Shown: positions 26,460-49,629 of the stretch, piece after piece
Layout: each line of letters opens with the position of its first letter
How positions within the stretch are numbered: the stretch's first letter is position 1
DNA from: Burkholderiales bacterium PBB3
GTDB taxonomy: Bacteria; Pseudomonadota; Gammaproteobacteria; Burkholderiales; Burkholderiaceae_C
Direction: 5' to 3'
DNA: 64,000 bases
Assembly (NCBI GenBank): GCA_002256115.1
Contig: NKIK01000003.1
Coordinates: 194,280-258,279 of the forward strand
The notes under the pieces: generated by a model
What the model was told of the DNA's origin: nothing
Seen by the model: only the letters and a program-made list of their open reading frames with translations
The model's database searches: none
Translations under genes and position numbers: made by a program

Positions 26460-27140
26460 CTATTTGCTTAAGTGCAACACGTAGCGGCTGCCCAATCGGG
26501 CCTTAAAGATTTTGGCCAACTCGCCATTCCTCTGCAGCTCCGCCAGGCCGCGCACCAACTCCTGCCCCAGCTCTGGCTCCAAACCCGGAGACAGCATCAA
26601 CCACACCGGTTTGGATGCCAACACCAAGCGCTGGGCATCTGCAAAACTGGCTTCCAAACCCGTGCTGGACAAGGCATCGAGCAAAGATTCATTTACCGTA
26701 CAAAAGCCATCGATCCGCCGTGCCTGCAACATGCGCACACCTGACTCCTGCGACTGAAGTTCCTGAAACCGCCAGGGCACGGCGCGGTCGTCACTCAGCT
26801 CTTGGCAGCCACCGTTCATGCGGCCCAGCGCCAAGGGTGCCAAATCACCGCGCCCGGCCACCAGCGCAGCCGCACGGGCAAAGGGCACGACCTCCACCCG
26901 TATCACCCGCCCTGTTTGTTGGGACAAGGCTGCCGCAATGTCCGGGTAAATTCCCTGCGGGCGGCCACTGGCGTCTATCCAGCCAAACGGCTTGGCCTGC
27001 AAAACCGGCATAGAGAGCGCACGCTCGGTTGCTAGCAGAGGCGCGCACCATACCAACGCCCAACACGCCAACAAAGCCCGGCGCAGCGCTGCAGCAGTAG
27101 AAACGGCGAAGGGGAATGGCATGGAGACATCGTAGTCCAA
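26460..27140 (-). CDS. Periplasmic solute-binding-protein-like (family 3) protein, divergent
   Basis: Signal peptide; 'FGWIDASGRPQGIYPDIAAAL' resembles SBP_bac_3. Short, with weak similarity. Confidence 0.4.
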   Translation of the reverse strand: MDYDVSMPFPFAVSTAAALRRALLACWALVWCAPLLATERALSMPVLQAKPFGWIDASGRPQGIYPDIAAALSQQTGRVIRVEVVPFARAAALVAGRGDLAPLALGRMNGGCQELSDDRAVPWRFQELQSQESGVRMLQARRIDGFCTVNESLLDALSSTGLEASFADAQRLVLASKPVWLMLSPGLEPELGQELVRGLAELQRNGELAKIFKARLGSRYVLHLSK

Positions 27141-28471
27141 TCACGGGGGTCTGGGCTTGCTATCCTTGTCCCGTGCCATCGCCCTCCCCCACCATCCGCC
27201 GCATTGCCCACCTGGACATGGACGCGTTTTACGCGTCGGTAGAGCTGCTGCGCTACCCGCAACTCAAAGACCTGCCGGTGGTGATAGGCGGTGGGCGCGC
27301 GAATGTGGCGGCAGCCCTGGAGGTACTGCGCCAGCAAGCCGCAGAAGACGCGCCCGAGCTGGAGTGGGATGCCGCCGCGCAGCGCGCCGCACTGCGCCGC
27401 ATTCCCATCGATGCGTTTGCTCGCCTGGCGGACTACACCGGCCGCGGTGTGATCACCACCGCCACCTATGCCGCGCGCCAGTTTGGTGTGGGCTCGGCCA
27501 TGGGTCTGATGAAGGCCGCCAAGCTGTGCCCGCAGGCCATTCTTTTGCCGGTAGATTTTGAAGAATACCGGCGCTACTCGCGCCTGTTCAAATCCATCAT
27601 CACCGAGATTGCACCGCTGATGGAGGACCGCGGCGTGGACGAGGTCTACATCGACTTCACCGACGTGCCCGGCGGCCAGCGCGAGGGCGGCCGCGTGCTG
27701 GCGCGTCTGATTCAAAAGGCGATTTTGGACGCGACTGGTCTGACTTGCTCAGTGGGCGTGGCACCCAACAAACTGCTGGCCAAGATGGCCAGCGAATTCA
27801 ACAAGCCGCGCGGCATCTCTATCGTGTTTGAGGCCGATGTGCCGACCAAGGTGTGGCCGCTGGCCTGCCGCAAGATCAACGGCATTGGCCCTAAGGCGGA
27901 CGAGAAGCTCAAGCGCTTTGGTATTGAAACGATTGGCCAACTGGCCGAGCGTGATTTGCAGTGGCTGATGGATACCTTTGGCCAGCGCACTGGAGCCTGG
28001 CTGCACGCCGCCAGCCACGGCCAGGACGACCGCCCGGTGGTGACGGAAAGCGAACCCGTGAGCCTGAGCCGCGAGACAACTTTTGAGCGCGACCTGCACG
28101 CCGTGCGCGACCGCGCCGAGCTGGGGGCAGTCTTCACCCGCCTGTGCGAGCAGGTGGCGGCCGACCTGCAGCGCAAGGGCTACGTCGGCAAAACTATCGG
28201 CATCAAGCTGCGCTATGACGATTTCAGCGGCGTGACGCGCGACCTGACGGTGGAGCAGTACACCGACGATGCAAAAACCATCCGCCAACTGGCTGGCCAG
28301 TGCCTGAAACGCGCGCCGCTGCAGAAGAAGCTGCGGCTGCTGGGTGTGCGCGTGGGGGCGCTGGCAAACCGTGCCGACCTCCCTGGATTAATAGCCAAAA
28401 GTGCCTTGCAGGCCGTGGATAGTGCGGGAGCAGCTCCTGAATTAATAGCGGTTAACGGGGAGCTCTTTTAA
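27116..28471 (+). CDS. dinB: DNA polymerase IV (Y-family)
   Basis: 'IAHLDMDAFYASVELL', 'VDEVYIDFT', 'SVGVAPNKLLAKMAS'. The last ~25 codons run through repeat copy 5. Confidence 0.9.
   Translation: MAWRHRSPITGVWACYPCPVPSPSPTIRRIAHLDMDAFYASVELLRYPQLKDLPVVIGGGRANVAAALEVLRQQAAEDAPELEWDAAAQRAALRRIPIDAFARLADYTGRGVITTATYAARQFGVGSAMGLMKAAKLCPQAILLPVDFEEYRRYSRLFKSIITEIAPLMEDRGVDEVYIDFTDVPGGQREGGRVLARLIQKAILDATGLTCSVGVAPNKLLAKMASEFNKPRGISIVFEADVPTKVWPLACRKINGIGPKADEKLKRFGIETIGQLAERDLQWLMDTFGQRTGAWLHAASHGQDDRPVVTESEPVSLSRETTFERDLHAVRDRAELGAVFTRLCEQVAADLQRKGYVGKTIGIKLRYDDFSGVTRDLTVEQYTDDAKTIRQLAGQCLKRAPLQKKLRLLGVRVGALANRADLPGLIAKSALQAVDSAGAAPELIAVNGELF
28381..28462 (-). repeat. Dispersed repeat, copy 5 (full-length form, inverted orientation)
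   Basis: 'CCCTGGATTAATAGCCAAAAGTGCCTTGCAGGCCGTGGATAGTGCGGGAGCAGCTCCTGAATTAATAGCGGTTAACGGGGAG'. Confidence 0.85.
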
Positions 28472-28479
28472 AAACCCGC

Positions 28480-30981
28480 TCAAGCCGTGCCACTGATGCG
28501 CAAAAGTCGATCCACCAATGCCAATAACAGCGTGACATCGATGGGCTTGGTGACATAGCCGTCCAGGCCCGCAGCGGCGCCCTCTGCCTGTTCGCCTGGC
28601 GTTGAGTTGGCCGTAACAGCGATAACCGGAATGGTCTTGGTGCGCCCATAAGACTTGAGCACCTCCAGTACTTGGTAGCCATCCATACCGGGCATGTTGA
28701 TATCCAGCAAAATCAAGTCCGGCTGCTGAGCCAGCGCAATGTTCAGGCCCTCGCCCGGCGTCAGCGCTGTGGTCAGCCGCAGCTGGGGTCGCCTTTTTAG
28801 TATCACCCTTATCAGCTTCAGGTTGACCGGGTTGTCATCAATGCACAGCACATGCAACAGGCGCTCAATGGCGATTTCTTGCACCCCGTTGCCCCCAACT
28901 TCCTCAGTCATGGCTTGGTCGGGCAACGCACTTGCCGCCAGTTCCACCCAAAACATGGCCCCCGCGCCCAGGGTGCTTTGCACGCCCACTTGCCCCCCCA
29001 TCCGGCGCACGAGCTGATCGGTGATGCTCAGGCCGAGGTGGGTTCCGTCAGGACTGGACGGGTCACCCAACTGGTCAAAGGGCGCAAATACATGTTTCAG
29101 CCGCTGGGGCTCGATACCCGGCCCCGTGTCTTGTACCTCTACACGCAGCTTGTCAGCCCCCCACCGCAGCACCCGCACGCCAACATCGCCGCCCGTGGGG
29201 CTGTAATGGATGGCGTTGGTCAAGAGGTTGAGCAAAACTTGCTTGAGTCGCATCCGGTCCGCCTGCACCACAAGTCCCGGTGCAATCTCGCTGTGAAACG
29301 TCAGGGACTGTGCTTTTGCCAACGGAGCCACCAGACTCCAGCACTCCGCAATTGCGCGGCCCAGGTCGACCGGCTCCAACGTCAAACCCACCGCCCCGGA
29401 CTCGATCCTGGCCAAGTCCATCACCTCGTTGATTAGCTTGAGCAGGTGGGTGCCACCGCTGGTAATTTGGGCGATGCTGTCGCTCTGGTCTTTGGTGAGC
29501 CGCTCATCCAATTGCAACACCTGAGCGAAGCCCAGCACCGCATTCAGAGGGGTGCGCAGCTCGTGGCTCATGCCAGAAATAAACTGCGTCTTGGCCAGAC
29601 TGGCTTCCTCGGCCTGCACCTTGGCCTGCCGCAACTCCTCTTGCTGGGCCAATACGCCGCTCAGGTCGCTAAAAATGTTGAAGATGTACTGTATTTCCCG
29701 TTGTGGGCCAAGCACAGCACCAATCGAGCTTTGCGAGAGACAACGGCTGCCGTCTTTGCGCTGAAACGGCAAAGGTCCGCTCCAGCGACCGGTGGCAACC
29801 ATGGACGCTTTGATCTCAGACTCCAGCCTGGCTGCCACATCGGGCGGGAAGGCACGCGTAAACGGTGCCCCTTTGACCTCCGAATCGCTGTAGCCCAAAA
29901 GCCGCTTATGTGCCGCATTTTGGTAAAAACCGTGTCCCGTGGCATCTGTAATCACCACGCACTGGCTGCTGGCATCAATCACCCGGTGAAACAGGTTGAG
30001 CTCTTTTTGCGCTTCTTTGCGTTGGCTAATGTCGGTCACAAAGGCCGTCACTACCTGCCCGTTGCCACGCGAAGATCGCGTGAGGGCAATTTCCACCGGA
30101 ATTTGCGCACCGCTGCGGGTGGCCATCAGCATTTCTGCGCGCCCGGCCTTGGTTGAACCCGACTGCCCCAACAACTCGGACACAGACCTGCGCTGCGCAG
30201 TGTCGGGTTGGAATATCTCGACCACATCGTCAAACGGCCAGCCCTGTATCTCCTGAAACCCCCAACCCAAAAGGGTCTCCGCCTTGGGGTTCCAGCCAAT
30301 GATTTTGCCATCACGATCTACCGTGATAACCGCATCTTGCGCATTGTCCAAAATACCCTGCAGGCGCAACTGGGACTCTGTTTGTTTTTGCAATATCCGG
30401 GCCAATTCCGAGCCCACCAACACAATAAGCACCATGCCGACCAGCAACTCCACACCGACCAGCTGCGGCGCGCCTGTGCGCGTCAGCAGTGCGGCCAGTG
30501 CAGGTGGCAAGAGCACCAGCACCGTAAAGATCTGCATGGCCCGCTGGATATACGACATTGACAGCATGGCGATCACGCATACAGCCAAAAGTGCGGTTAC
30601 CAGCATCGCACTGAACTGGAAACCTGCCTGCGACAGCAGCCACGCGGGCACTGCAGACCAGCTCAACGCAGCCAGTGCGGACTGCGCCGTGAATAACGTC
30701 CGCCAACGCACAATGGCTTTGCCCTGCGGCGCTGCCTTTTTGAAACTGCGGCACTCCCACACACCCAGCGCCGACCCCAACCAGATGGCAGCCACCCAGA
30801 TGATCAACACTTCAGGCAAAAAGAATTGCCAAAACAGTGCGCCACCTACAGGGGCTACCACGGCCGCCGTGGTTACGTTCAAAGGTTTGCGGGCATACGC
30901 CTCGTAGAGCAGGTGCTGCTCTACGTCCAGATGGGTGGACGGGCGGGTCAGAAAGGAAAAATCCATGGGCTGTGTCAACAA
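28480..30981 (-). CDS. Hybrid sensor histidine kinase (multi-TM sensor, PAS x2, HisKA, HATPase, REC)
   Basis: 'SGMSHELRTPLNAV' H-box, 'GTHLGLSI' G2 box, C-terminal REC 'LILLDINMPGMDGY'. Confidence 0.85.
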   Translation of the reverse strand: MLTQPMDFSFLTRPSTHLDVEQHLLYEAYARKPLNVTTAAVVAPVGGALFWQFFLPEVLIIWVAAIWLGSALGVWECRSFKKAAPQGKAIVRWRTLFTAQSALAALSWSAVPAWLLSQAGFQFSAMLVTALLAVCVIAMLSMSYIQRAMQIFTVLVLLPPALAALLTRTGAPQLVGVELLVGMVLIVLVGSELARILQKQTESQLRLQGILDNAQDAVITVDRDGKIIGWNPKAETLLGWGFQEIQGWPFDDVVEIFQPDTAQRRSVSELLGQSGSTKAGRAEMLMATRSGAQIPVEIALTRSSRGNGQVVTAFVTDISQRKEAQKELNLFHRVIDASSQCVVITDATGHGFYQNAAHKRLLGYSDSEVKGAPFTRAFPPDVAARLESEIKASMVATGRWSGPLPFQRKDGSRCLSQSSIGAVLGPQREIQYIFNIFSDLSGVLAQQEELRQAKVQAEEASLAKTQFISGMSHELRTPLNAVLGFAQVLQLDERLTKDQSDSIAQITSGGTHLLKLINEVMDLARIESGAVGLTLEPVDLGRAIAECWSLVAPLAKAQSLTFHSEIAPGLVVQADRMRLKQVLLNLLTNAIHYSPTGGDVGVRVLRWGADKLRVEVQDTGPGIEPQRLKHVFAPFDQLGDPSSPDGTHLGLSITDQLVRRMGGQVGVQSTLGAGAMFWVELAASALPDQAMTEEVGGNGVQEIAIERLLHVLCIDDNPVNLKLIRVILKRRPQLRLTTALTPGEGLNIALAQQPDLILLDINMPGMDGYQVLEVLKSYGRTKTIPVIAVTANSTPGEQAEGAAAGLDGYVTKPIDVTLLLALVDRLLRISGTA

Positions 30982-32030
30982 TCTAACAAGCTATTGCGGA
31001 TAGCCAGCAGCGCGGGCAGGCAGAGCTGAAAGTGGCGAATGACCTCGGGGTCAAAGTGCGCGCCGCTTTGTGAAACTAAAAATTCAACAGCCGCATCCAC
31101 GCTCCAGGCGGCTTTGTAGGGCCGCTCAGACGTAAGGGCATCAAACACATCGGCCACGGCCACAATGCGGGCCGCCAGGGGTATGGCCTCACCCTCCAAG
31201 CCGGCCGGGTAGCCAGTGCCGTCCCACTTTTCGTGGTGATTTAGCGCAATTTTCTGGGCCAACTGCAGCAGATCGGATTCGTCATCATCGGCCAATATCA
31301 TGGCCCCGATAGCGGCGTGCGTTTGCATCGTGGCCCACTCGGCCGCGTCCAGCTTGCCTGGCTTGAGCAGGATGCTGTCAGGGATGCCAATCTTGCCCAC
31401 ATCGTGCATGGGGCTGGCGTGCAGTAGCAGGTCGCACCGCTCAATACTCCAGCCCATGCTGTTGGCTATGCACTCTGCAAACCGGCTCATGCGAATGGTG
31501 TGCAAGCCGGTTTCGTTGTCGCGGTACTCCGCGGCGCGGCCCAGGCGCTGCACCACTTGCAGACGCGTCTTGTTAAGGGCCTCGGTGCGCTCGCGCACGC
31601 GCTCTTCCAGCACTGCCTTTTGGTCAAACACCATGCGGTGTGCCAGCTGCGCGTCCAGCAAATTGCGCACCCGCATGAGCAGCTCAGCGCGGTCAAAGGG
31701 CTTGCCAATGAAGTCCCGCGCGCCACTGTTGAGCGCCTTGAGCAAGGCATCGCGCCCGTGCTGCGCTGTCATAACTACCACCGGGGGCAGCATGGAATCC
31801 TCCAGATTTTTGAGCTGCTCCATGACCGCGTAGCCATCCAGGTGCGGCATGTTGATGTCGAGCAAGATCAGGTCCGGGCGGCCCTCTTGGTAGCGCGGCA
31901 GCACCTCACGCGGGTCCTGCAAGAGTACGAGCTGGGTGTAGCCCTGTCCGGTGAGCAGTTTGTCGAGCAGCTTAAGATTGACCGGCTCGTCGTCCACCAC
32001 AAAAATGCGGGCTGGGTTGGTCTGGGTCAC
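30975..32030 (-). CDS. Response regulator with HD-GYP c-di-GMP phosphodiesterase domain (RpfG-like)
   Basis: REC 'IFVVDDEPVN...LILLDINMPHLDGY'; 'HDVGKIGIPD', 'HHEKWDGTGYP'. Overlaps both neighbouring kinase genes. Confidence 0.9.
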   Translation of the reverse strand: MTQTNPARIFVVDDEPVNLKLLDKLLTGQGYTQLVLLQDPREVLPRYQEGRPDLILLDINMPHLDGYAVMEQLKNLEDSMLPPVVVMTAQHGRDALLKALNSGARDFIGKPFDRAELLMRVRNLLDAQLAHRMVFDQKAVLEERVRERTEALNKTRLQVVQRLGRAAEYRDNETGLHTIRMSRFAECIANSMGWSIERCDLLLHASPMHDVGKIGIPDSILLKPGKLDAAEWATMQTHAAIGAMILADDDESDLLQLAQKIALNHHEKWDGTGYPAGLEGEAIPLAARIVAVADVFDALTSERPYKAAWSVDAAVEFLVSQSGAHFDPEVIRHFQLCLPALLAIRNSLLDC

Positions 32031-34561
32031 AAGGTGGTCTCTGTTGGGCTACTTTGCAGTAAATCGTCCATGGTCCAAAGGAGTACCCGCACATCCACCG
32101 GCTTGGTCAGATAGCCGTCGAAGCCGGCAGCCAGGCCCCGCGCCACATCGGCTGGCATGGCGTTGGCCGTCACGGCAACAAAGGGTACGTGCCGGAATCG
32201 CGCGTCCGCTTTCAGAATGCCCAAGACCTGGTAGCCGTCGAGTCTTGGCATATCGATATCCAGCAAAACAATGTCAGGCGTGTTGGCCAACGCCAGTTCT
32301 ATGCCTTGCTCCGGCTCGGCGGCAGACGTCAGTTTGAAGTTGGGCCGACGCGCCAATACGACTTCAATCAAGCGCAAGTTGATGGGGTTGTCGTCAATCG
32401 AGAGTACCCGGACCGTGCGCTCCAATGCGCCAGACTCCGTGGCGCAGGCGAAACCCACCTCGCAATCATCCTCGGCAGGCAGCACATCGGGGCCTTGCGG
32501 CAACACAATGCTGAACGTCGTACCCACCCCCACGGTGCTGTGCACCTCCACCGTGCCGCCCATCAGTTCGACCAAGCGCCGCGTGATGGTCAGGCCAATG
32601 CCAGTGCCTTCCACCGTGCCGGTATCGGCACCCAAACGATTAAAGGGTTGAAACAAGTCGCCCAGGCGCTCGGGGGCAATACCCGCACCCGTGTCACTGA
32701 CTGCAATGCACAGCAAGCCCTCTGGCATGACTTGTACCGACGCGGTAACGCTGCCACCGACTCGGTTGTATTTCACGGCGTTAGACAACAGGTTGATCAA
32801 CGCCTGCTTGAGCTTGGTGTGGTCGGCCCGCGCTGTCAGCCCGGCGGGTACCGCAAACTCCAGGCGCACGTTGTGTGCAGTCGCCAGGGTCTGGATCAGG
32901 TCGCGGCAGTCTTTCAGCAGTTCGGCCAGAATCACGCTTTCCAGCGATACATCCAGTTTGCCGGATTCGATTTTGGCCAGGTCCAGCACTTCATTGATCA
33001 AAGCCAACAAGTGCTGCCCGGCCTTCATGATTTCCTGCACACTGTCTTGCTGGTCGGCGTTCAGATCCTGGTCATATTCCAGCATCTGCGCAAATCCCAA
33101 AATGGCATTCATGGGCGTGCGCAACTCATGGCTCATGCTCGACAAAAAATCGGACTTGGCCAGATTGGCCCGCTCGGCCTCGTCTTTGGCCCCGGCCAAC
33201 TCCGCACGGCGCGCCAGTTCGGCGCTGAAGTCGGTAAATATATTGAAAGAGTACTGCACCCTGCCGTCGTCATCACGAATAAACCCCACATTGCTGGCCG
33301 ACGTAAAAACGGAGCCGTCTTTGCGCTGGATAGTCAGTTGGCCCATCCAGCCACGCTCGGAGGCAACCGCGTCCCGCGAAGCCAGTTTGAATGCCTCTTT
33401 TGCTTCCTTTGGCACTACTTTGGAGAAGTGTTGCCCCAAAATTTCTCCATCGCGGTAACCCAGTTCTTTTGCCTGCGCCTGGTTTTGATAGACCACGATG
33501 CCTTTGGCATCGGCAATGCCCACGCACTGATCACTGGAATCAAACACGCGTCTGAATAGTTTCAAGCGCTCCTGGACCTTCTTACGCTCTGAAATATCGG
33601 TCAAAAATGCCGTGTAACTGAGCTTGCGGTCATGTTGTAGCGGTGTGACCACCAGCTCGACCGGGAACACTTCGCCGTTTTTACGCTGGGCAGTGGCCTC
33701 TATTCTTTGACCCGGCGTAGTCATGCCAACGGCCTTGCGCCCAGGCACCAAATGGCGGTAGATACCGCGTTGGCTGGTGGGATCAAACCGCTCGGCCTCA
33801 GGCACCAACGTGCTTTGCACTGTAGCCCCCACGGCATCTTCCGCCGTCCAGCCAAATATGGTCTCGGCCCGGTGGTTCCAGGCGGTGATGTGCCCTTGCG
33901 CATCGATGCCCACCACTGCGTCGGGCACATCTGCCAACACGGCCTTGAGGTGCAGTTGCGACTCCTGCAGCTGCCAGGCGGTTTGATGCGACGCGCGCCC
34001 TACCACAATCAGCGCCGCTATACCCGCCAGCAAGACCAGCGCCACCAAACGGTCAACATCACCGCCGGTGACCAGGCCGACAGTCGCCGTGGGCAACAAA
34101 GCCCCCACCACAAAGCCCGCCATGGCCATGCGCTGCTCTGACACCGAAGCGACGATAACCGCGCTGACACAAAACAACATACTCACAAACAAGACCGCAT
34201 AGGGGCCATCAATGGGCCACATCATCAGCGCAGGCCCCACGGACCAGCACAGGCCGGAGACGGTGATCTGCAGCGCAAATACGCGCTGCCAAAAGACGAT
34301 ATTTTGTCCGGACGGAGCCGCCCTAAAGAATGCCCAACAGTTGAAACCGGCCGCTAGACACATGCAAGCCATGGCGCTGACCCAGATCACTTTGGGCTGG
34401 TGCGGCAGGTAGGGCCAAAGGACCCACGCACCAACAATGGTTGCAACGGCCGACATGGCCACATCCAACACATTTCTTCTGTAGGCCAGATACAGAAGCG
34501 CCGATTCAACGGACAAGTCGCGGTGGGGCTGGGGCATCGTTTGATGATACCCACGCACCAC
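32027..34561 (-). CDS. Hybrid sensor histidine kinase, paralogue of 28480..30981
   Basis: Same architecture: 'SSMSHELRTPMNAI', 'GTGIGLTI', REC 'IVLLDIDMPRLDGY'. Confidence 0.85.
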   Translation of the reverse strand: MVRGYHQTMPQPHRDLSVESALLYLAYRRNVLDVAMSAVATIVGAWVLWPYLPHQPKVIWVSAMACMCLAAGFNCWAFFRAAPSGQNIVFWQRVFALQITVSGLCWSVGPALMMWPIDGPYAVLFVSMLFCVSAVIVASVSEQRMAMAGFVVGALLPTATVGLVTGGDVDRLVALVLLAGIAALIVVGRASHQTAWQLQESQLHLKAVLADVPDAVVGIDAQGHITAWNHRAETIFGWTAEDAVGATVQSTLVPEAERFDPTSQRGIYRHLVPGRKAVGMTTPGQRIEATAQRKNGEVFPVELVVTPLQHDRKLSYTAFLTDISERKKVQERLKLFRRVFDSSDQCVGIADAKGIVVYQNQAQAKELGYRDGEILGQHFSKVVPKEAKEAFKLASRDAVASERGWMGQLTIQRKDGSVFTSASNVGFIRDDDGRVQYSFNIFTDFSAELARRAELAGAKDEAERANLAKSDFLSSMSHELRTPMNAILGFAQMLEYDQDLNADQQDSVQEIMKAGQHLLALINEVLDLAKIESGKLDVSLESVILAELLKDCRDLIQTLATAHNVRLEFAVPAGLTARADHTKLKQALINLLSNAVKYNRVGGSVTASVQVMPEGLLCIAVSDTGAGIAPERLGDLFQPFNRLGADTGTVEGTGIGLTITRRLVELMGGTVEVHSTVGVGTTFSIVLPQGPDVLPAEDDCEVGFACATESGALERTVRVLSIDDNPINLRLIEVVLARRPNFKLTSAAEPEQGIELALANTPDIVLLDIDMPRLDGYQVLGILKADARFRHVPFVAVTANAMPADVARGLAAGFDGYLTKPVDVRVLLWTMDDLLQSSPTETTL

Positions 34562-34577
34562 GTCAGCACAGCGTAAG

Positions 34578-34922
34578 CTACTGGTCTGTGGCGACGCCCA
34601 GCCGCCACAGCGACGTCACCTCTTTGGAGCGTGCTGCGTGCGGCGGGTCGGTGGCCACGATCCGGCCGATTCCCCGGCGCGCCAGCACCGCCAACAAAAC
34701 ACCGGTGCCCGTGCCAATATCAAAGGCGCACAGGGCCGCCACCGAAGCCACGCTAACGGCGCCGGGTGGGCCCCAGGCCTCTGCACAAGCCTGACGCGCA
34801 TCGGGGCTGCGCTTCAGAGGGACACTGTAGTCAGCCTCAAAGCCAATCAACAGCATGCCCAGCACGCGAGAGCGCTGGGCTTGGCGATGCAGATGGAAGC
34901 CTGCGGCAAAACTAAGTGCCAA
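34578..34922 (-). pseudogene. Decayed copy of the methyltransferase gene at 47407..48756
   Basis: The translation matches three separate blocks of the 467-aa protein ('FHLHRQAQ..VLGMLLIGFEADY', 'FDIGTGTGVL.AVLARRG', 'HAAR..EVTSLWRL'), with two large internal deletions and no N-terminal third. Confidence 0.65.
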
Positions 34923-34986
34923 ATCGGCCTTTGAAGCCGTGGATAGTGCGGGAGCAGCTCCTGAATTAATAGCGGTTAACGGGGAG
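34906..34986 (-). repeat. Dispersed repeat, copy 6
   Basis: 34936-34986 is identical (51/51 nt) to 28412-28462 of copy 5. Confidence 0.85.
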
Positions 34987-35020
34987 TTGTTTTAGCTTGT
35001 GGTGCATCTGCGCATCAGCA

Positions 35021-36373
35021 TCACGACGGCCGCACAGGCTTCTTGCCGCGCTTGGGCGCCAGCAATACCGACTCACCCACTCTTGCAGTGGCGAATTTCT
35101 GGGGTGGTGATGGCTCCATCACCCCCGCCTCTTGAGTGAGCTTTGTCATTTCTGGCACCTGGATTTGAATGCGCTCGTTCAGTCGATTGAGCCCTGCGTT
35201 CCAGTGCCACAGCATCCTCGCGCCCACCGCGTCAAACCCTGGCGTGTGCTTCATGCGTTGAATCAATTCCGGCACGGTCGCCGCCACGGCGGTGCACACC
35301 AGCTCAGCGAGTTCGCGTTGGCGCGGGGGGTCGATACCCAGAAACACTTGCATGAATTGCCACAAGGGCTTCAGATGGGTCCAGCTCTTGCGGCCATCGA
35401 TGGACATGCCTGGCGGGTTATCCGCGTAGCTGTCATAGGCCACGATGGTCAGCATGTCGTAGATGGGCGCGACATGCACATCCTCCAAGCCGGTGTACAA
35501 AAAAGCAAGATTCTTGGTGTGGCAGTCTGAGTTGCCAAGTGCGTGCGTCAACAGCAGTGTCACGGCCAGTTGCTCGTAGGACGCGCGGCGGCCCTGGGGT
35601 GGCACATAGTTGCGCACAAGGCGCGCGGCGCGCTCCCAGGTGCCGTCGTACTTTTGCTCGGCACCCATGCCCAGCATGCTGCAAAAGTCTTCAAAACCCA
35701 GCCGCTCGCCAGTGAGCGGATCAATGTCAAAGCGCTCGACCACGAGGATCTGACCGTCGTCGGAAACCACTGTTTCTGCAACCGCGAAGCCGGTGGCTTT
35801 GGCCGCTTGCATACACAGGTGCTCGTTGAGCCCCACAAGCGGTTGCTTGTCTGAGCTAGCTTTGACGATGTGGCGCTCTGTGGATACGGTGCCTTTGCGG
35901 AACAGTGCTTTGGTCTCTGGCGTCAGAAATTTGGGGACCACCCCCGACACGCCTGAGGCCGCGTACTGGCTCATCAATTGCAGAAACACTTCGCGCGAAG
36001 ACTCACCATGCAACAGTCCATCGAGTTCATTGGCGGCGAGTTGCGGATTGGGACTACTGCCTGCGCTTACCTGAACGCGACCGATCATGTTGTGCCCCAC
36101 CACCGACAGCAGATCCATGGGACTTGCTCCCAGATGCGGCCCCAACTGCTCTTTGAGGACGGACAGTAAAAACCCCTCCGGCAGACTCACCTGAAAGAAA
36201 GGGTGCAGATTGGGCCACTCCCAGCTGGGGGACTGCACGGGCATGAGCAGCGACACAAAATCCTCGGGAGGGGTTCCGTGCAGGTAGGTCAGGTAATGCT
36301 CAAACCCTGCGGGGCTCTGCAACACCGCCACATGTCTGCCGTTCACGAAGACATTGAGTTCTGCCTTGCTCAT
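35021..36373 (-). CDS. hipA: HipA-family Ser/Thr kinase toxin
   Basis: 450 aa. N-terminal HipA coupling region; catalytic loop 'GNSDCHTKNLAFL' (DxHxKN); overlaps the upstream HTH gene. Confidence 0.85.
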   Translation of the reverse strand: MSKAELNVFVNGRHVAVLQSPAGFEHYLTYLHGTPPEDFVSLLMPVQSPSWEWPNLHPFFQVSLPEGFLLSVLKEQLGPHLGASPMDLLSVVGHNMIGRVQVSAGSSPNPQLAANELDGLLHGESSREVFLQLMSQYAASGVSGVVPKFLTPETKALFRKGTVSTERHIVKASSDKQPLVGLNEHLCMQAAKATGFAVAETVVSDDGQILVVERFDIDPLTGERLGFEDFCSMLGMGAEQKYDGTWERAARLVRNYVPPQGRRASYEQLAVTLLLTHALGNSDCHTKNLAFLYTGLEDVHVAPIYDMLTIVAYDSYADNPPGMSIDGRKSWTHLKPLWQFMQVFLGIDPPRQRELAELVCTAVAATVPELIQRMKHTPGFDAVGARMLWHWNAGLNRLNERIQIQVPEMTKLTQEAGVMEPSPPQKFATARVGESVLLAPKRGKKPVRPS

Positions 36374-36669
36374 GGCTTGCCGGACGCTCCGTGCGAAGCA
36401 TTGCGCAGTTCTTGCTGCAAGTCGTTCAAATTGGGGCGGCGGGTAGCGGGCACAAACTCCATCTCCACATCCAACACCTGCAACAAACGCAAGAGCTTGC
36501 CTGCGGATAGATCGCTGGAGGCCCCCGTCTCAAAGCGCGACAGCGTCTCTTGTCGCAATCCGGCAGCTGCTGCTACCTCAGTCTGCGTCTTGCCCGCTGC
36601 CTTGCGCAGCTGCTTGTACCGCGCACCAACGTCGGGCAGTGTTAATAAGGGATTTGCGTTTGGCATCAT
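36370..36669 (-). CDS. hipB: XRE-family HTH antitoxin (HipB-like)
   Basis: 'YKQLRKAAGKTQTEVAAAAGLRQETLSRFETG' HTH. ATGA-type overlap with hipA. Start taken at ATG 36669; the ORF extends to TTG 36690. Confidence 0.75.
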   Translation of the reverse strand: MMPNANPLLTLPDVGARYKQLRKAAGKTQTEVAAAAGLRQETLSRFETGASSDLSAGKLLRLLQVLDVEMEFVPATRRPNLNDLQQELRNASHGASGKP

Positions 36670-36706
36670 AAATTGGAGAAAATTTTCCAAATCATGCTGT
36701 TCATTG

Positions 36707-36787
36707 CATATTTCGTCAATCCAAAATATGTTTTTCAGATCAAACTATTTGTAATTTTTGTAGAAATATGATTTGAATAGCATATTT
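36707..36787 (-). promoter_or_regulatory. Candidate hipBA operator/promoter region with two dyads
   Basis: CATATTT-N10-AAATATG (36707-36730) and AAATATG-N10-CATATTT (36764-36787) lie in AT-rich DNA just upstream of hipB. Confidence 0.4.
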
Positions 36788-36842
36788 TGGGCAAGGGAAG
36801 AAACGGCCAATGCTGGGTAAGCGCGCTGGCAACCGTGCCGAT

Positions 36843-36913
36843 CCCCCTAGATTAGTGGCCAAAAGTGCCTTTCAACCGGCGATAGTGCGGGGGCAGCTCC
36901 TGAATTAGTAGCA
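36843..36913 (-). repeat. Dispersed repeat, copy 7 (degenerate)
   Basis: 'CCCCCTAGATTAGTGGCCAAAAGTGCCTTTCAACCGGCGATAGTGCGGGGGCAGCTCCTGAATTAGTAGC'. Confidence 0.75.
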
Positions 36914-37092: not shown

Positions 37093-37578
37093 TTATAGGC
37101 CAAGAACATCACAGTGAAGTGGCCTGAGGTGAAACTTGCGGCGTTCGCGGCCCTGCCACTCACGCGGTACTTTGTCGAGTTCGCAGTTGAGTGTGACGCT
37201 GTTGACAATGCCAAACCCCAAAGCTACCCACTCAAACTCTCGCGAGTCTGATCCTGCATTTACCTTAAACCAGAATGCCTGTGTCGGGTCGCTTGAACTG
37301 GGAGGCATGCCAGGGTATCGCACCGGGGTCGCTTTCCCGGTAGCCACAACGACAAGGGCAGTACCCCGCGCGTCGGTAGTCGCGTAAATTGGGCGTTCGC
37401 AATCATCCGAGCCCAAGCTTCTGTAATCCAGGCACGTTGAGATGCCTGCAGCTCGCACTGGCTTTCCCGACTTTGTCAGCGTCACAGTAATCGGCGTAAG
37501 GACGACGTTCTCCGCATAAGCGGCAGGTACAGCCAAAGCGAGTGCTAAGGCGATATGAATGTGCCGAACGTAATACAT
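37093..37578 (-). CDS. Small secreted hypothetical protein in a low-GC patch
   Basis: Start moved to ATG 37578 ('MYYVRHIHIALALALAVPAAYA|EN' signal peptide). The longer ORF to 37917 would overlap the HKD gene. Confidence 0.4.
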   Translation of the reverse strand: MYYVRHIHIALALALAVPAAYAENVVLTPITVTLTKSGKPVRAAGISTCLDYRSLGSDDCERPIYATTDARGTALVVVATGKATPVRYPGMPPSSSDPTQAFWFKVNAGSDSREFEWVALGFGIVNSVTLNCELDKVPREWQGRERRKFHLRPLHCDVLGL

Positions 37579-37849
37579 GCTCGCGTGAAATCTACTTAAT
37601 GTCCAGAGCACCAATAAGTGCTCGATAAACTGGCTGATGCACGATATTCTGGTCATCAAATCCTCCCGAAAGTGGCTTGCAGCCTCACTTTCACTGTTTT
37701 TCGACTTTGTTAAATGGATATCGATATTCTGGCAGACCTGCCGAGACTGGCGGATACAAAACCATGTCCACAGACTCCATGAGACTGAAATTGGGTGACC
37801 GTCCTGAACGACAGCTATCACCCACAGATCGCAACGAGCAGGCTGAATC

Positions 37850-38566
37850 TCAATCGCCCAACTTTCCCCACAACTGATCAAACGCCCCCTGAAACTGCCG
37901 CACCAACGCAGCGTCATTCGTCACAACCACGTTCTCTTCGTTATGAGCCGCAGCACTGCGCGTCCAGTTGTAGCTGCCGTTCAGCAGCCACTGCCCATCA
38001 AAGATCGCAAACTTGTGGTGCATGTGCGCATCGGTGCGGTCCACGGCGGTGGGCACACCGGCGGCGCGCAGTCGGGTCACATCGCTGCCGGAGTCGGTTT
38101 CTTTGTCGTTGTCGGTGATGAAGCGCAGGGCCACGCCGCGTGCATGCGCGGCCAGCACCTCTTGGGCGATGCGGTCGTCGGACACGGTGAACACACAAAA
38201 ATCTACGCTGCGGTGGGCGCTGCGGAAGTGCTCGACGATGGTGTTCAGGCAAGCTTCACCAGGGCTAAAGAATGCGCTGGAGCGAATGGCTTGCGCTGGC
38301 GTACGGGCCACGTCCAGCGCGCGCACCACGGCCTCCGTCCAGCGCAGCACGGCCATGGGGTCTTGCTGTTCGGCCAACCGGTTGCGCGCCAGTGTGAAAG
38401 CATGGTTGCGCAGTTGGCGAAAGCCGTCTTCCGGCGGCTGGGCCTGGCGCAGGGTTTGGGCCAGGCTGTGTTTCTCTTCGTCGTCCAAGCGCAGGTCGGC
38501 CAGAGAGGCTTCCAACTGGCCTAGCAAGTTTTCCATGTCTGCGGGTGTGGCAGTCATCGTTTCCAC
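37850..38566 (-). CDS. Single-HKD phospholipase D-family protein (Nuc-like nuclease/phosphodiesterase)
   Basis: 'HMHHKFAIFDGQWLLNGSYNWTRSAA' HKD motif near the C-terminus, after a ~90-aa helical N-terminal extension. Starts 2 nt after the giant gene's stop. Confidence 0.85.
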   Translation of the reverse strand: METMTATPADMENLLGQLEASLADLRLDDEEKHSLAQTLRQAQPPEDGFRQLRNHAFTLARNRLAEQQDPMAVLRWTEAVVRALDVARTPAQAIRSSAFFSPGEACLNTIVEHFRSAHRSVDFCVFTVSDDRIAQEVLAAHARGVALRFITDNDKETDSGSDVTRLRAAGVPTAVDRTDAHMHHKFAIFDGQWLLNGSYNWTRSAAAHNEENVVVTNDAALVRQFQGAFDQLWGKLGD

Positions 38567-38568
38567 AC

Positions 38569-41500
38569 TCAGCCCTCGGTCTTCTTGCCACCGCCCTGGG
38601 CACGCGGTGCCCGTGGCTCGTTGGCTTTGGCCAGCAGCAGCTCCAGCCGTTTACTGATGCTGTGGTCCAGGTCCATGCGCTTCTCCGTCGCGGCGATCAG
38701 CGGCATGATGACTTTGCGGTATGTCACCGCCAACTGCAGCACGGCCTCAGCCATTTGCGCTCCCTCACTGGGTTCTTTGGGTCCCGCTGCCGGGCGCAAC
38801 TCATCAACCGACCGGCTCACATCCAGCAGTGCATTGGCAATGCGCGTAGAGCCGTCCGCATCCGCCCCACCCGCTTTGCGCTGGCGCACAAATTCGGCGC
38901 AGATGGCCTGCCAACGCGCATCCTCCTCGGGGCTTGCGGTGCCCATCAGTTGGGCCAGCTTGAGTAGGTTTTCTTGCGTGCCGGTGGTCAGGGTCTGGGC
39001 CTCACCCCGGTAGTGGTCGCGCAGCAGGGCGTCCAGTTCATCCTCATGCATCAGCCCGGTGATCTGGGCAGCCAGCTTGGTCATATTGCGGTAGCTGCCC
39101 TGTAGCTTGAAAGCGGGCTCGGTGCGGTAGTCGTCACGCTGGGCGGCTGAATCGATATAGGCCTGGTTCACCTTCAGCAGCAGATCGCGCGCGCGGAACA
39201 GCCTTTGCATGAGTGCTTTAAGCTCTTCCAGTTCGGCACTACTGTAAGCATGGGCAAAGTCGCCGCTGGCCACCTCATCCCCCTGGGCCAGGCGCACCAG
39301 CAATTGCACATCGCGCGGGTCGCGCGATGACAGGGGTGCCAGCACCGGATTGCTGGTCAGGCTGTTCTCAATATACGACTGGGCGAACAGGGCTTCGCGC
39401 CCAGCCAACACATCGCCCAGGTTGTAGATATCGGCCCGGTTGGCCAGCATGTCCGGGATCTTGAAGACCTCGCCCGACTCGGTATACGGGTTGCCCGCCA
39501 TGGCGATGGCAAAGCGCTTACCGCGCAAGTCGTAGCTGCGCGCCTGGCCTTGCCACATGCCTTCAATGCGGCGCGTGCCATCGGCCAGGCCGATGAACTT
39601 CTGCAAAAACTCCGCACTGGTGTGCTGAATGTCGTCCAGGTAGAGCATCACATTGCTGCCCATGGCCAGGCCCAGGTTCAGCTTCTCCAGCTCTTGGCGG
39701 GCAGCGCTGTTGCTGGCCGACGCAGGGTCAAGCGCCGTCACGTCATGGCCCAGTGCGGGGCAGTTGATGCGCACAAACACCAGCCCCAGCCGGTCGGCCA
39801 CATATTCCATCAGCGTGGTCTTGCCATAGCCAGGCGGCGAAATCAGCAACAACAGCCCCATGCGGTCCGTACGGCTGGTGGCACCGGTGGTGCCAATCTG
39901 CTTGGCCAGGTTGTCGCCAATCATCGGCAGGTACACCTCGTCGATCAGACGGTTGCGCACAAAAGATGACAAAGGCTTGGCCTGGAACTGGGATAAACCG
40001 AGGCGCGATTTTTCTGCGCTCAGCAGTTCGTGGTGCAAGCTTTTGAGCGCTGCAAACGCGGGCACCACCGTTTCGGCATGCGCGCGGTAGCGGCTCCAGA
40101 AGTCATTCAAATTGATCTGCAAGCTGCCTTGATTGATGCGGGCGTGTTCGCTGCGCAAACCGGTCACCGTGGCATCCAGCACCACATTCACCCTGCGGCG
40201 CTGGCCTGGCACAGCCAATACGCAGGCGGCATCGTCTACCCATGCGATGGCGGTCGGCTGGTGCGCCAGTGCAAAGGCATGCATCCAGGCACGCGCCAGC
40301 AACCAACGCTCGGCGGGTGTGGATGCATCCAGGCTGTGTTGCCAATCCAGCGCTTGGCCCAGGCGCTCCAGCTCGCGCTGCAGTGCGCTGGCCATGTCTT
40401 CGCCCGCGCCGCTGATAACCCAGGCCTGCTCTGTACCTGCAGCCCCAATCTCCCGCAGCCAATAGCTCGCGGCTTGATGGCACGCGGTCTGGTGATGCCC
40501 GTTATCAACGGACACTGGCGACAACGCGAAGCCGCTCTCTTCGGCAAACTGCAGCACGCTGTGCGCGGCCTCCACTTCCAGTTTTTGCAGGCTATCGCCA
40601 GCGCCAAAGAGGTGTTGCACTTGCAGCGCTGCACGCGCACGCCGCCGCCAAGACGCCTGCGCCTCACCCGAGCCCAAGTGCTGCCAAACCAATGTCGCCA
40701 GCGCGCGCTCTGTGGGGCCCCAAGTCAGCAAGCCTGCCTGCTCTTGCATGGGCACCAAAGCAGCAACCAAGCGCACCGCATCTTCGTCGTGCACGCCCTT
40801 TTCGTACCCTTCTTGATAACGGGCTGCGGCAAATTGGCGCACGCCCTCCAGCAGCGCCGCATGGCCGTCTTCACCTTGCGCCACCAGCGCCAGAGTTTGT
40901 GCCCAGGTCAGTGTGGCCTGCCCTTTTAGAACCTCTTCAATCCAACTTGCCGCCAAGTACTCTGCGCGGCTGATCAGCGCGGTCTCAGACGGCAGGGCTT
41001 GTTGCCAATACGGGCGATACGCGTCCAGCCGCGCGTCTTGCAGCGGTGCCCGGTAATCCGTGCCCGTCAGGTAAAAGGCCATGCTGTCGCCCAGCGGAGC
41101 CAGTGTGAGCTCCAGCGGCTGGCGGCTGATGGTGAAAGCGTGGCGGCCCAGGCGCAAATGGTTGCCGCCCTCAGACACCAGCTCGCGCTGATCACGCACC
41201 GCGCGCAAGGCGTGGTCGCGGCAAGTCTTGAGGCGCGTGTCCAGATCATCCGCAGCCACCTGGTCACCCAGGCCCCGCATGTCTGCAATCAGAGTGCGCA
41301 GCTTGGCAATCAGCAAGTCCGCCGCAAAGTAGCTGTGCACTTCTTCCAAGCCACTGAGCTGGGCCACACGGCGCTGCGCCCCGTCCAAAATGCGACCGGC
41401 CGCTGCAGCCAGAGCCTGCACGCGCTGCTGGCGCGCTTGCACCAGCGTTTGCTTGCGCGCGGTCAGCGCTTCGTAGACGGCCTCGCGTTTCTCTGTCACA

Positions 41501-43743: not shown

Positions 43744-43751
43744 GCAGACCC

Positions 43752-44288
43752 TTACCAGTCAGCACGCAACAAGGCGACTAGCTCGTCACGGCCTGGCTGC
43801 GCCTGAAGCCACTGGCGAATGCGTGCCAGCTCATCCATGGTCTCAGCGCCGTGGCGTTGGCGCAGCACGGCTTCGCGTCCTTGGCGCAACTCGTTAGTCT
43901 GCAATTGGCGCTGCCAAGCATCGGTCAGAATCTCGTCGAGCCGGCTGCCCAGACCTGCTGCCACAAATGCCTGCCACTCGCCGCGGGCAAACCAGACGTT
44001 CTGGCACGCAGCGCAACGGTCCACGCGGAAGTCGGGCTGCGCGCCTACGCGGAAACGCTGCATCAGGCGCGCGCACGCAGGGCAATGCCGGGCGATCGGG
44101 TCTTCATCGGCAGCGATGGCTTGCGCCACCGGCGGCACCGGTGTTTTGTCGCGCCAGGCGCGGTAGTCGTCGAGTTGTAAAAGCTGGCCTTCACAACTGA
44201 CGCATTCCAGGCCCTGCAGTCCGGGTGCCAATTCGCAGACTGTGAGTTCGGTGTGGGCCTCGCAGCCGCAGCGCAGTGTTGATTTCAT
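43752..44288 (-). CDS. Double zinc-ribbon protein (zf-TFIIB-like)
   Basis: 'CPACARLMQRF...VDRCAACQNVWFARGEW' matches the CPxC...DxCxxCxGxWxDxGE pattern. A degenerate first copy is 'CGCEAH...CVSCEG'. 8 nt upstream of the giant gene. Confidence 0.65.
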   Translation of the reverse strand: MKSTLRCGCEAHTELTVCELAPGLQGLECVSCEGQLLQLDDYRAWRDKTPVPPVAQAIAADEDPIARHCPACARLMQRFRVGAQPDFRVDRCAACQNVWFARGEWQAFVAAGLGSRLDEILTDAWQRQLQTNELRQGREAVLRQRHGAETMDELARIRQWLQAQPGRDELVALLRADW

Positions 44289-44303
44289 GGGTGTGCTCCT
44301 GCG

Positions 44304-46466: not shown

Positions 46467-46523
46467 GAAAACTCCCTAGTGAAACAAATTACTTAAACGA
46501 TCGAAGAGGCAGTGCGCAGGGCG

Positions 46524-47153
46524 CTAAGGCTCCGCCACCACCTTGTAGCGTGCTGTCTTTTCGTCATAGCCCACGATGCGTGCACTGCTACCGCGTGCCA
46601 GTGCATTGGGCACAGGCGTCCAGATGCGAATATTGATGCTGGCACCGTGCTGGGCCACCTCGGCGCGGCCCATCTGCTCATCCACCGTTTGGGTCAGCAC
46701 TTTGCAGGTCTGCCCCACCAGCGATGCATTGTTGATGGCAGCGTGGGTGACGAACAAACCACGCAGCGGCCGAATCATGCGGGCACTGACCGTGACCGCC
46801 AAAGACAGGCTGGCCAGGGCCAACACAGCACCCGCGCCGTAGTTGGCTGCGGCACCACCCAACCAGGGCAGCACCCACATGGCCCCCAGGCAGCTCAGTG
46901 TCCAAGCGACCAATATGACCAGGCTGACCGCGATAGAAAATGGAACCCCGTGCAGGCCGAAAGCGACCACATAGCTGGCCACCGTGCTGATCTCGTAGCC
47001 GTCCACATCGGCGGCAGAGCCAGGCTCCAGGTCCAGAGACTCTAAATCGACCACGCCCAGCAGGGCCAGCAGCCAGTAAAAGATCACGACCCCTAAAAAA
47101 GTCGTGAAGAGTGCGGTGGGAAATGCGACCACCGCGTCCAAAAAGCTCAGCAT
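46524..47153 (-). CDS. yqiJ: YqiJ-like inner-membrane protein with C-terminal NfeD-type OB fold
   Basis: 209 aa, which I recall is about the size of E. coli YqiJ. Multiple TM segments, then a beta-rich 'LVGQTCKVLTQTVDEQMGRAEV...' domain. Directly upstream of the flotillin gene, as in yqiJK. Confidence 0.7.
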   Translation of the reverse strand: MLSFLDAVVAFPTALFTTFLGVVIFYWLLALLGVVDLESLDLEPGSAADVDGYEISTVASYVVAFGLHGVPFSIAVSLVILVAWTLSCLGAMWVLPWLGGAAANYGAGAVLALASLSLAVTVSARMIRPLRGLFVTHAAINNASLVGQTCKVLTQTVDEQMGRAEVAQHGASINIRIWTPVPNALARGSSARIVGYDEKTARYKVVAEP

Positions 47154-47311: not shown

Positions 47312-47382
47312 AATTTAAATGAATTCAAGCTGTAGAGCCCATGGATAGTGCGGGAGCAGCTTCTGAATTGATAGCAATCAAT
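47312..47382 (-). repeat. Dispersed repeat, copy 8
   Basis: '...GAGCCCATGGATAGTGCGGGAGCAGCTTCTGAATTGATAGCAATC'. Confidence 0.8.
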
Positions 47383-48756: not shown

Positions 48757-48760
48757 AAGT

Positions 48761-49075
48761 TCAGTAGCCATGGAGGGCGTATTCCAGGGCGTCCCAAATG
48801 GCTTCGGCATCGCCTTGCAGGTTGGCTACTGGGCGGCGCAGATCGCCGGGCTCATGGGAGGTAATCGCCAAAGTCTCCAACACAAGCATTTCACCCGCAA
48901 CACTCAGCCAGGGATTCAGTGTGGTGGGAGGCGCTGTTTGCGTATCCGGGCGCGCCAACGCCACGGTGATCACCGCTACGGGGCGTTTCAGAAAATTGCT
49001 TTGAATGCCGACGACGAAGGGATGACTGTCGCGCAACTCTTCGACCGGGTTGGGGTACACATCGAACTGAGCCAT
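48761..49075 (-). CDS. ccdB: CcdB-family toxin
   Basis: 104 aa. 'MAQFDVYPNP......PFVVGIQSNFL' matches the CcdB N-terminal pattern. 1-nt overlap (TGATG) with the upstream antitoxin gene. Confidence 0.7.
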   Translation of the reverse strand: MAQFDVYPNPVEELRDSHPFVVGIQSNFLKRPVAVITVALARPDTQTAPPTTLNPWLSVAGEMLVLETLAITSHEPGDLRRPVANLQGDAEAIWDALEYALHGY

Positions 49076-49488: not shown

Positions 49489-49629
49489 GGTGATGCTCCT
49501 GCAAAAACAATTCATGCCATCATGCCGCATGAATGCAGCCTGTCAAGCTGCCATGGCGCGGCGCACATGCACTAAAGTTCGCCCACCCCATCACTAACCC
49601 TCACCACCCCTCATTCACCCTCGCCCACC

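Follow-up and report, generated by a model that had tools for sequence, protein, structure and literature searches.

In a 64,000-nt stretch of Burkholderiales bacterium PBB3 (contig NKIK01000003.1, positions 194,280 to 258,279; this whole stretch is called the window here), the gene dinB is followed by a 6.5-kb block of two hybrid histidine kinases, a REC-HD-GYP response regulator and a methyltransferase remnant, and the block is bounded by direct copies of a repeat that are identical over 51 nt. Both copies carry the 3' terminus of dinB (VNGELF*, the asterisk being the stop codon) while the target gene stays intact. The second copy is a chimera, with a methyltransferase-type left half and a dinB-terminus right half. 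We consider it about an even chance that non-allelic repeat copies recombined homologously and so placed two diverged versions of one dinB-to-methyltransferase locus in tandem, the kinase block probably being the incoming version. The original prediction had proposed a recent duplication or a site-specific or homologous insertion that delivered 28463-34935. The recombination footprint is there and the phylogeny favours homologous insertion, but duplication and site-specific insertion did not hold.

The repeat pair and the chimeric joint

Five relatives were used for comparison: L083 (GCA_025363275.1) and L084 (GCA_965194295.1), which are the two longest contigs, and L085, L086 and L087. The dinB genes of the nearest genomes are 80-86% identical in nucleotides to that of this genome. 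The features that carry the argument are, in positions of the window:

27116-28471, plus strand: dinB (DNA polymerase IV), with Pfam IMS, IMS_HHH and IMS_C; the last domain ends at residue 418
28377-28449, plus strand: repeat copy R28k, a family element lying in frame within the C-terminal linker of dinB (repeat search, alignment, core search)
28412-28462, plus strand: copy 1 of the 51-nt identity, in which 38 nt of family core and box precede 13 nt of dinB codons
28451-28471, plus strand: terminal codons of dinB, GTT AAC GGG GAG CTC TTT TAA (VNGELF*)
34578-34935, minus strand: methyltransferase remnant, three blocks homologous to 47420-48337, with two internal deletions and the 5' side truncated at the repeat
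34915-34973, plus strand: repeat copy R34k, whose left arm extends the methyltransferase homology (81% to 48334-48432) and whose core is identical to those of R28k and R48k
34936-34986, plus strand: copy 2 of the 51-nt identity (sequence reading)
34975-34995, plus strand: displaced dinB terminus, GTT AAC GGG GAG TTG TTT TAG (VNGELF*), in no long open reading frame (ORF)
47407-48810, minus strand: intact methyltransferase (MTS/PrmA-like, Pfam MTS/PrmA), aligned end to end with the L083 and L084 proteins
48374-48432, plus strand: repeat copy R48k, in frame in the intact methyltransferase

When the sequence was read again, 28412-28462 and 34936-34986 agreed at 51 of 51 positions. The 8 nt that follow are CTCTTTTA in copy 1 and TTGTTTTA in copy 2, and the base after those is A in copy 1 and G in copy 2, which makes 57 of 60 through both stop codons. 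The identity is far above chance, an exact 51-mer pair being expected about 1e-21 times in 64 kb of random sequence (our arithmetic). It also exceeds the consensus of the repeat family, as predicted: the 10 copies of the window align in common only up to ...TAGC. Among 27 strictly filtered copies (7 of the 10 in the window and 20 from metagenomes), GGTTAAC stands 3' of the repeat in R28k and R34k only, and because no other copy has it, the 13-nt extension is dinB sequence and not a repeat subfamily. The 51-nt identity is a composite of homogenised family core (38 nt) and conserved dinB coding sequence (13 nt). The pair had been called much better conserved than the others; it is the best in the family, but narrowly, since its two members have exact runs of 40 and 38 nt in common with R48k, where the median longest run over 45 copy pairs is 20 nt. 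The 38-nt family portion is also identical at 48393-48432. As a sign of recency the identity had to be given up, 38 nt being core that is homogenised within each genome and 13 nt being conserved dinB codons. Scans for repeats call for the same caution: a long perfect repeat may combine a homogenised core with conserved coding sequence and so be a poor guide to age.

Copy 1 is the working 3' end of dinB, and the gene is intact. Residues 419-451 of DinB, the last 33 codons, consist of the repeat copy and the native C-terminus ...ELIAVNGELF*, and the DinB proteins of the five relatives end in ...ELIAVNGELF*, ...ELIAVNRELF*, ...DLIAINGELF* or ...KNGDLFE*. The LF* terminus is found in about two thirds of some 65 Comamonadaceae DinB proteins. 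From the known polymerase IV motif we take VNGELF* to be a C-terminus of the beta-clamp-binding type. The 3 differences between the copies are all silent (CTC and TTG both encode leucine, TAA and TAG are both stops), and the chance that 3 random substitutions would all leave the peptide unchanged is 0.005-0.008. The TTG codon of the displaced terminus is also used in L083, L085 and L086.

To the left of the 51-nt identity, R34k and the dinB copy have only 21 matches in 52 positions, and R34k belongs there to the methyltransferase homology. That homology runs over 34875-34973 against 48334-48432 (81%) and 34737-34884 against 48190-48337 (80%), with further blocks at 34648-34727 and 34591-34651, and in R34k it ends at ...TAGC, where the dinB tail starts. 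The frame of the remnant is open for 137 codons (34578-34991, minus strand), through the repeat and across both deletions, and it keeps the S-adenosylmethionine-binding motif without the NPPW region. In the intact gene, R48k occupies codons 132-151 of the stop-to-stop frame 47407-48825.

From this anatomy we infer the following course of events. The donor would have been a linear fragment from a related lineage with dinB, its tail repeat, kinase 1, the HD-GYP gene, kinase 2 and a methyltransferase with an internal repeat. RecA-type homologous recombination would have made the left crossover within or upstream of dinB, and at the right crossover the repeat core of the donor methyltransferase (Rm) would have paired with the dinB-tail core of the resident (Rd), so that the incoming version would be added in tandem and the resident one not replaced. 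The product would be a functional dinB with the donor tail (CTC, TAA), a donor block that ends in a methyltransferase cut at its repeat, and the resident tail (TTG, TAG) moved 6.5 kb downstream, still joined to hipA, which would formerly have stood after dinB. Version 1, probably the incoming one, would be 28.47-34.93 kb (kinase 1, HD-GYP, kinase 2, remnant), and version 2 would be 34.99-48.4 kb (hipBA, a defence-like island, the intact methyltransferase). R34k has the flanks of such a joint repeat, the left one matching R48k and the methyltransferase at 80-81% and the right one being the dinB tail, and R28k, R34k and R48k share exact runs of 38-51 nt. Direct repeats of such a length are above the minimum that is usually quoted for RecA-dependent recombination.

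A site-specific island would explain some of the same features: the 51-59-nt copies would be attL and attR of an integrase that targets and restores the dinB 3' end, and a direct repeat that holds a gene 3' terminus and leaves the gene restored does resemble islands at tRNA genes or gene 3' ends. However, no integrase, transposase or other recombinase came up in the segment or next to it in the Pfam, NCBIfam and PADLOC scans of the ORFs in 28-49 kb, a dispersed family with 10 copies in the window accounts for 38 of the 51 nt, copy 2 has a left half derived from the methyltransferase and not from an island, and the relatives have orthologous genes at the same place. We regard this explanation as largely refuted and its probability as close to nil.

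Synteny, divergence and direction of transfer

The kinase block and the genes to its right comprise:

28480-30981, minus strand: hybrid histidine kinase 1 (PAS-PAS-HisKA-HATPase-REC)
30975-32030, minus strand: REC-HD-GYP response regulator, whose orthologue faces dinB in all five relatives
32027-34561, minus strand: hybrid histidine kinase 2, orthologue (61-66% amino-acid identity) of the single kinase in L083 and L084
35021-36690, minus strand: hipA-hipB toxin-antitoxin cassette; homology to cassettes in unrelated contexts spans 35025-36784
36823-36912, plus strand: repeat copy R36k, a second dinB relic (left-flank score against shuffles)
49630-50475, plus strand: enoyl-CoA hydratase (ECH) gene, where the family-wide synteny downstream of dinB resumes

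In L083 and L084 the gene order is FMN dehydrogenase, dinB, HD-GYP, kinase and intact methyltransferase, followed in L083 by the ECH gene; in L085, L086 and L087 the HD-GYP gene faces dinB. An empty site with a single repeat copy had been predicted for close relatives. It was not found: all five have an orthologous HD-GYP gene facing dinB, and L083 and L084 also have the kinase and the methyltransferase with the same repeat sites. This comes near to the state that the original prediction had named as its refutation, all relatives carrying the segment with diverged flanks, but the failure of the empty site does not by itself decide the history of the segment. As the repeats at the dinB and methyltransferase sites have the same orientation in both L083 and L084 and flank the HD-GYP/kinase block, the kinase/HD-GYP genes were repeat-flanked before these lineages split. 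In more distant Comamonadaceae (species representatives; best DinB match 81% in amino acids, too far off for presence or absence among strains and informative for deep synteny only) dinB is directly followed by the ECH gene and the methyltransferase is absent as well. Specific to this genome are kinase 1, hipBA, the 37-47 kb island and a ccdB pair. By its domains, the kinase/HD-GYP block is likely to act in cyclic-di-GMP signalling.

Kinase 1 is absent from all five relatives and is 38-40% identical to kinase 2 and to the kinase of L083 and L084. A collection of 5.8 billion proteins held no homologue of kinase 1 above 54%; the nearest (50-54%) lie in unrelated contexts and not beside HD-GYP genes, and kinase 1 was dropped as a lead to the donor arrangement. 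HipA was likewise dropped as a lead to a dinB-hipA adjacency, its homologues of 83-91% identity sitting in unrelated contexts. Searches for exact proteins gave no match for DinB as called here, and matches for HipA and HD-GYP in one Logan sample only, plus the NCBI metagenome-assembled genome (MAG) for HD-GYP.

The remnant and the intact methyltransferase differ at 60 sites over 289 alignable nt (21%), distributed 12/9/39 over the codon positions, with 65% at the third. Distances by codon position were as follows.

Remnant and intact copy: 0.109 at positions 1+2, 0.406 at position 3
Intact copy and L083: 0.109 at positions 1+2, 0.396 at position 3
Remnant and L084: 0.202 at positions 1+2, 0.458 at position 3
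Intact copy and L084: 0.197 at positions 1+2, 0.448 at position 3

The divergence between remnant and intact copy matches that between the intact copy and L083, which means that both diverged as working genes. Since the remnant is no farther from L084 than the intact copy is, there is no measurable decay since its inactivation. These patterns indicate a fairly recent joining of two locus versions whose lineages are about 20% apart.

The same numbers bear on an in-place tandem duplication, in which unequal crossing-over of sister chromosomes at the dinB-tail and methyltransferase repeats would have been followed by divergence and by replacement of the second kinase copy with hipBA and the island. 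Tandem duplications mediated by repetitive extragenic palindromic (REP) sequences, with a chimeric join-point, are known from Salmonella, and the series of repeats found here (dinB|dinB, methyltransferase|dinB, methyltransferase|methyltransferase) is just what a duplication predicts. Yet a copy truncated at birth should decay neutrally, whereas the 21% divergence has the 12/9/39 pattern of purifying selection and its non-synonymous part is no higher than between orthologues. The tail differences, moreover, are all silent (P about 0.006), and no second HD-GYP or kinase copy remains. The divergence pattern together with the silent-only tail differences led us to reject an old in-place duplication, and the scheme as a whole, already disfavoured, is improbable.

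To return to the joining of two diverged versions, its direction was examined with the ratio d(window,L083)/d(L083,L084), given here with its 95% bootstrap interval.

dinB: 0.63 (0.53-0.75)
Intact methyltransferase: 0.64 (0.55-0.73)
FMN dehydrogenase: 0.77 (0.66-0.92)
HD-GYP: 0.85 (0.74-1.00)
Kinase 2: 0.87 (0.80-0.94)
Remnant: about 0.8 (no interval)

There was no sign of acceleration on the window branch. Neighbour-joining trees conflict, that of dinB grouping L084 with L087 (99.5%) and that of HD-GYP grouping L084 with the window (95.6%). Quartet-informative sites numbered 13 for the intact methyltransferase with L083, against 7 and 6. At four-fold sites the intact methyltransferase diverges from L083 by 0.39 on one side of its repeat and by 0.40 on the other, and the flanking genes (dinB, ECH, FMN dehydrogenase) give 0.32-0.39; a methyltransferase that is chimeric across its repeat was considered and, with 0.39 against 0.40, not seen. 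The four-fold divergence of kinase 2 was dropped as a stand-alone sign of foreign origin, as it is equally raised between L083 and L084. Because HD-GYP, kinase 2 and the remnant sit deeper in the phylogeny than dinB and the intact methyltransferase, the kinase block is favoured as the incoming version. We assign the incoming role to 28.47-34.93 kb with moderate confidence, the direction being read from sequence comparison.

Several points weigh against this reading. Gene-content parsimony favours the opposite direction, all relatives keeping HD-GYP beside dinB, and the ratio of FMN dehydrogenase is intermediate. The direction tests use few taxa, and 289 nt in the case of the remnant, and the HD-GYP tree may carry long-branch effects. 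We found neither a donor-like genome (dinB, kinase 1, HD-GYP, kinase 2, methyltransferase) nor a resident-like one (dinB, single repeat, hipA), and a metagenome scan with the junction pattern TTAATAGCGGTTAACGGGGAG gave 0 matches. The model does not account for kinase 1, seated between HD-GYP and the dinB tail, and R36k needs at least one further, unreconstructed event. Finally, the source is a MAG, an independent Logan k-mer assembly (SRR5749613) breaks at both repeats, and the linkage across them is taken from the assembly.

The main rival is the same joint made in the reversed direction: the kinase/HD-GYP block and the remnant would be native, and hipBA, the island and the intact methyltransferase (34.99-48.4 kb) would have come from a donor lineage with that block directly after dinB, the dinB-tail repeat of the donor having crossed over with the methyltransferase repeat of the resident. 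In its favour, the left block agrees with the ancestral synteny, HD-GYP (and kinase and methyltransferase) being kept by dinB in 5 of 5 relatives; hipBA is a mobile cassette in unrelated contexts, the junction of the remnant with kinase 2 looks ancestral, and G+C is lower around hipB and the neighbouring ORF. In contrast, the intact methyltransferase behaves as the resident orthologue on both sides of its repeat, and the depth of the remnant, HD-GYP and kinase 2 (0.8-0.87 against 0.63-0.64), the incongruent trees and the quartets all speak for an incoming kinase block. We judge the reversed direction possible but rather unlikely.

Another rival is an assembly artefact: the MAG contig would join two co-occurring strains or molecules wrongly at the 51-nt repeat, and the same graph could be resolved instead into a chromosome in which dinB, one repeat and hipA follow each other and, apart from it, a 6.5-kb circle or a second strain. 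Besides the nature of the source, the Logan assembly can be cited for it, giving the kinase block as a 6519-nt contig that ends in both repeats and a hipA contig that ends inside the repeat. However, such breaks are expected for any many-copy 31-mer repeat, ordinary short reads span 51 nt and a larger k or read pairs should resolve it, and the truncated, internally deleted methyltransferase beside kinase 2 most simply fits the arrangement as assembled. We hold an artefact to be quite improbable.

The joint at 34.9 kb may have had a predecessor. The hipBA cassette lies between the two chimeric copies R34k and R36k. In R36k, 26 nt of dinB coding sequence are followed by the left arm and the core, with about 87% identity to 28358-28449, and the left flank of this copy scores 35 against 13.1 +/- 2.1 in 2000 shuffles. 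Its right flank was rejected as a dinB-tail homologue, the score not being significant and the flank unrelated. The more decayed state of R36k suggests a second, older event and hence repeated additive integration at the dinB 3' end.

Beyond R36k lies a lineage-specific island (37093-47153, minus strand) with a PLD-family nuclease (37850-38566; weak matches to DrmC, MkoB and DpdK), a 1724-aa DUF3686/AAA protein (38569-43743), a 178-aa zinc-ribbon protein, and proteins of 720 and 209 aa without a family match. It has the look of a defence system, but no PADLOC system matched. Between the intact methyltransferase and the ECH gene stand a ccdB toxin gene and an adjoining 151-aa ORF (48761-49530, minus strand), absent there in L083; the 151-aa ORF is possibly the antitoxin. 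The predicted start of the methyltransferase overlaps the 3' end of ccdB by about 50 nt.

The dispersed repeat and its genome-specific cores

The repeat is short, dispersed and not palindromic, and it is tolerated as an in-frame part of protein linkers, namely those of dinB, the methyltransferase and PbpC. With up to 3 mismatches allowed, the window contains 10 occurrences of its 19-nt core GGATAGTGCGGGAGCAGCT, where 0.08 are expected and none of 100 shuffles reached 10; the density is about 1 per 6 kb. The four copies at 6-18 kb lie on the minus strand, the six at 28-53 kb on the plus strand. The aligned copies have about 60-75 nt in common (...GCCAAAnnnGCCnTTCAGGCCGTGGATAGTGCGGGAGCAGCT, 9-10 variable bases, ATAGC), with complete divergence beyond TAGC in the alignment of 10. 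Two further copies of the window are named here:

6389-6460: R6k, adjoining a group II intron-like RNA
47317-47375, plus strand: R47k, where the island joins the 3' end of the intact methyltransferase (repeat search, alignment)

No stable hairpin was predicted in 8 copy/strand folds (z-scores from -2.2 to +1.3, most of them near zero, between -0.7 and +1.3), there is no terminator-like site at either copy of the 51-nt identity, and the Rfam scan of the window gave only a group II intron and a tRNA and no match to the repeat. With no such site, significant fold or Rfam match, a role as terminator or structured RNA was rejected. No long hairpin was predicted and the copy flanks were unrelated in the alignments, target-site duplications being judged by eye only. 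The literature yielded no account of this family.

The linkers of DinB, the methyltransferase and PbpC have an in-frame family copy at orthologous positions in this genome, L083 and L084, and that of PbpC also in L006. The positions, in the order DinB, methyltransferase, PbpC, and the cores are:

Window: 28377-28449, 48374-48432 and 18374-18424; core GCTCCCGCACTATCCAC
L083: about 7474, 2885 and 15683; core ACTSAGGCAG...
L084: about 5418, 460 and 13517; core GGTAGCGCTAGTRCTGTAT

The cores agree among the three sites within a genome and are unrelated between the three genomes, whereas the box beside the core is conserved site by site. The core at the dinB site is common to L083, L085 and L087 but not to this genome, although the dinB of L083 is nearer to that of this genome than to those of L085 or L087. 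The cores thus appear to evolve in concert within genomes, which would account for 38 of the 51 identical bases; the pattern suggests concerted evolution or genome-wide replacement of the core. Tentatively, and with more doubt than confidence, we propose that the repeat is an undescribed coding-tolerant element, in which conserved arms (...GCC...TTCAGGCC; AGCT-N9-10-TAGC) surround a core of about 20-25 nt, this core being overwritten across the whole genome in a manner particular to each lineage. If this is true, a new core would sweep through existing copies by a homing-like process or biased conversion, and the elements would be self-renewing patches of perfect identity that drive rearrangements such as that at dinB. 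The genome-specific cores, if genome-wide, would bear on how bacterial repeat families stay homogeneous.

Some further observations concern the family. The orientation of the repeat tends to track local gene direction, the GCTAT...AGCT...GGCC strand being the sense strand of the host or adjoining genes in about 6-7 of 10 copies, with dinB as an exception. Many Comamonadaceae DinB linkers (L002-L081) have ...AQAA(I/T)xS(I/G)A..., which resembles the box GCTATnnAnTCnATAGC in the orientation opposite to that of this genome; read from the peptides only, this suggests that the same linker was occupied independently more than once. In metagenome contig L174, positions 12190-12327 match 63848-63985 of the window (138 nt at 97.8%), and about 420 nt upstream L174 has a family repeat that the window lacks at that place, which may be an insertion polymorphism or reflect a conserved small gene. 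Directly beside R6k lies the compact group II intron-like RNA (5838-6356, minus strand), with RF02005 D1-D4 at 6134-6356 (166.6 bits) and RF00029 D5-D6 at 5838-5915 (37.6 bits, just below the gathering score). It has no evident ORF for an intron-encoded protein; a plus-strand ORF at 5956-6486 is probably spurious.

Comparison with known systems

On the favoured reading, a short repeat in coding linkers would serve as a portable homology patch by which the locus version of a related species is added beside the resident one instead of replacing it. The translesion polymerase gene dinB would stay intact throughout, each incoming piece bringing its own clamp-binding terminus. Recombination between the 51-nt copies would be expected to delete the kinase block and leave the DinB protein unchanged; if confirmed, such scarless loss would make the kinase/HD-GYP block a natural presence/absence polymorphism.

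The closest parallel is with rearrangements at dispersed repeats, such as REP sequences and bacterial interspersed mosaic elements (BIME), insertion sequences (IS) and ribosomal RNA operons (rrn), in which the join also falls inside a short repeat whose left flank comes from one member and whose right flank comes from another. Unlike those cases, the tandem units here are not copies but locus versions about 20% diverged with different gene content, which points to incoming DNA from another lineage rather than to exchange between sister chromosomes. Islands at gene 3' ends of the tRNA/tmRNA type also duplicate the 3' terminus and leave the gene intact, as at dinB, and the decayed relic farther out at 36.8 kb recalls their tandem arrays. 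However, there is no integrase here, the repeat is a member of a dispersed family, and the segment is orthologous to what the relatives contain.

As a family, the repeat resembles REP/REPIN-RAYT elements in being short, abundant, genome-specific and interspersed. It differs from them in lacking a stable hairpin and in having several copies in frame inside genes, and the 64-kb window showed no RAYT gene. Miniature inverted-repeat transposable elements (MITE) are also unlike it, this family having no long hairpin and unrelated flanks. Rickettsia palindromic elements and other repeats fused in frame to genes (reviewed in PMC3184786) are similarly tolerated at protein linkers and termini, but the present family is non-palindromic, and its copies at orthologous sites differ between genomes and match within a genome. 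Lastly, BRE is a short repeat of Bordetella and Comamonadaceae (Hot et al. 2011, PMC3110155), some copies of which lie wholly within coding sequence; it is described as about 90 bp long, often tandem and with 69% G+C. In that description, though not by comparison of sequences, it differs from the present family, whose boxes are rich in A/T and whose copies are dispersed.

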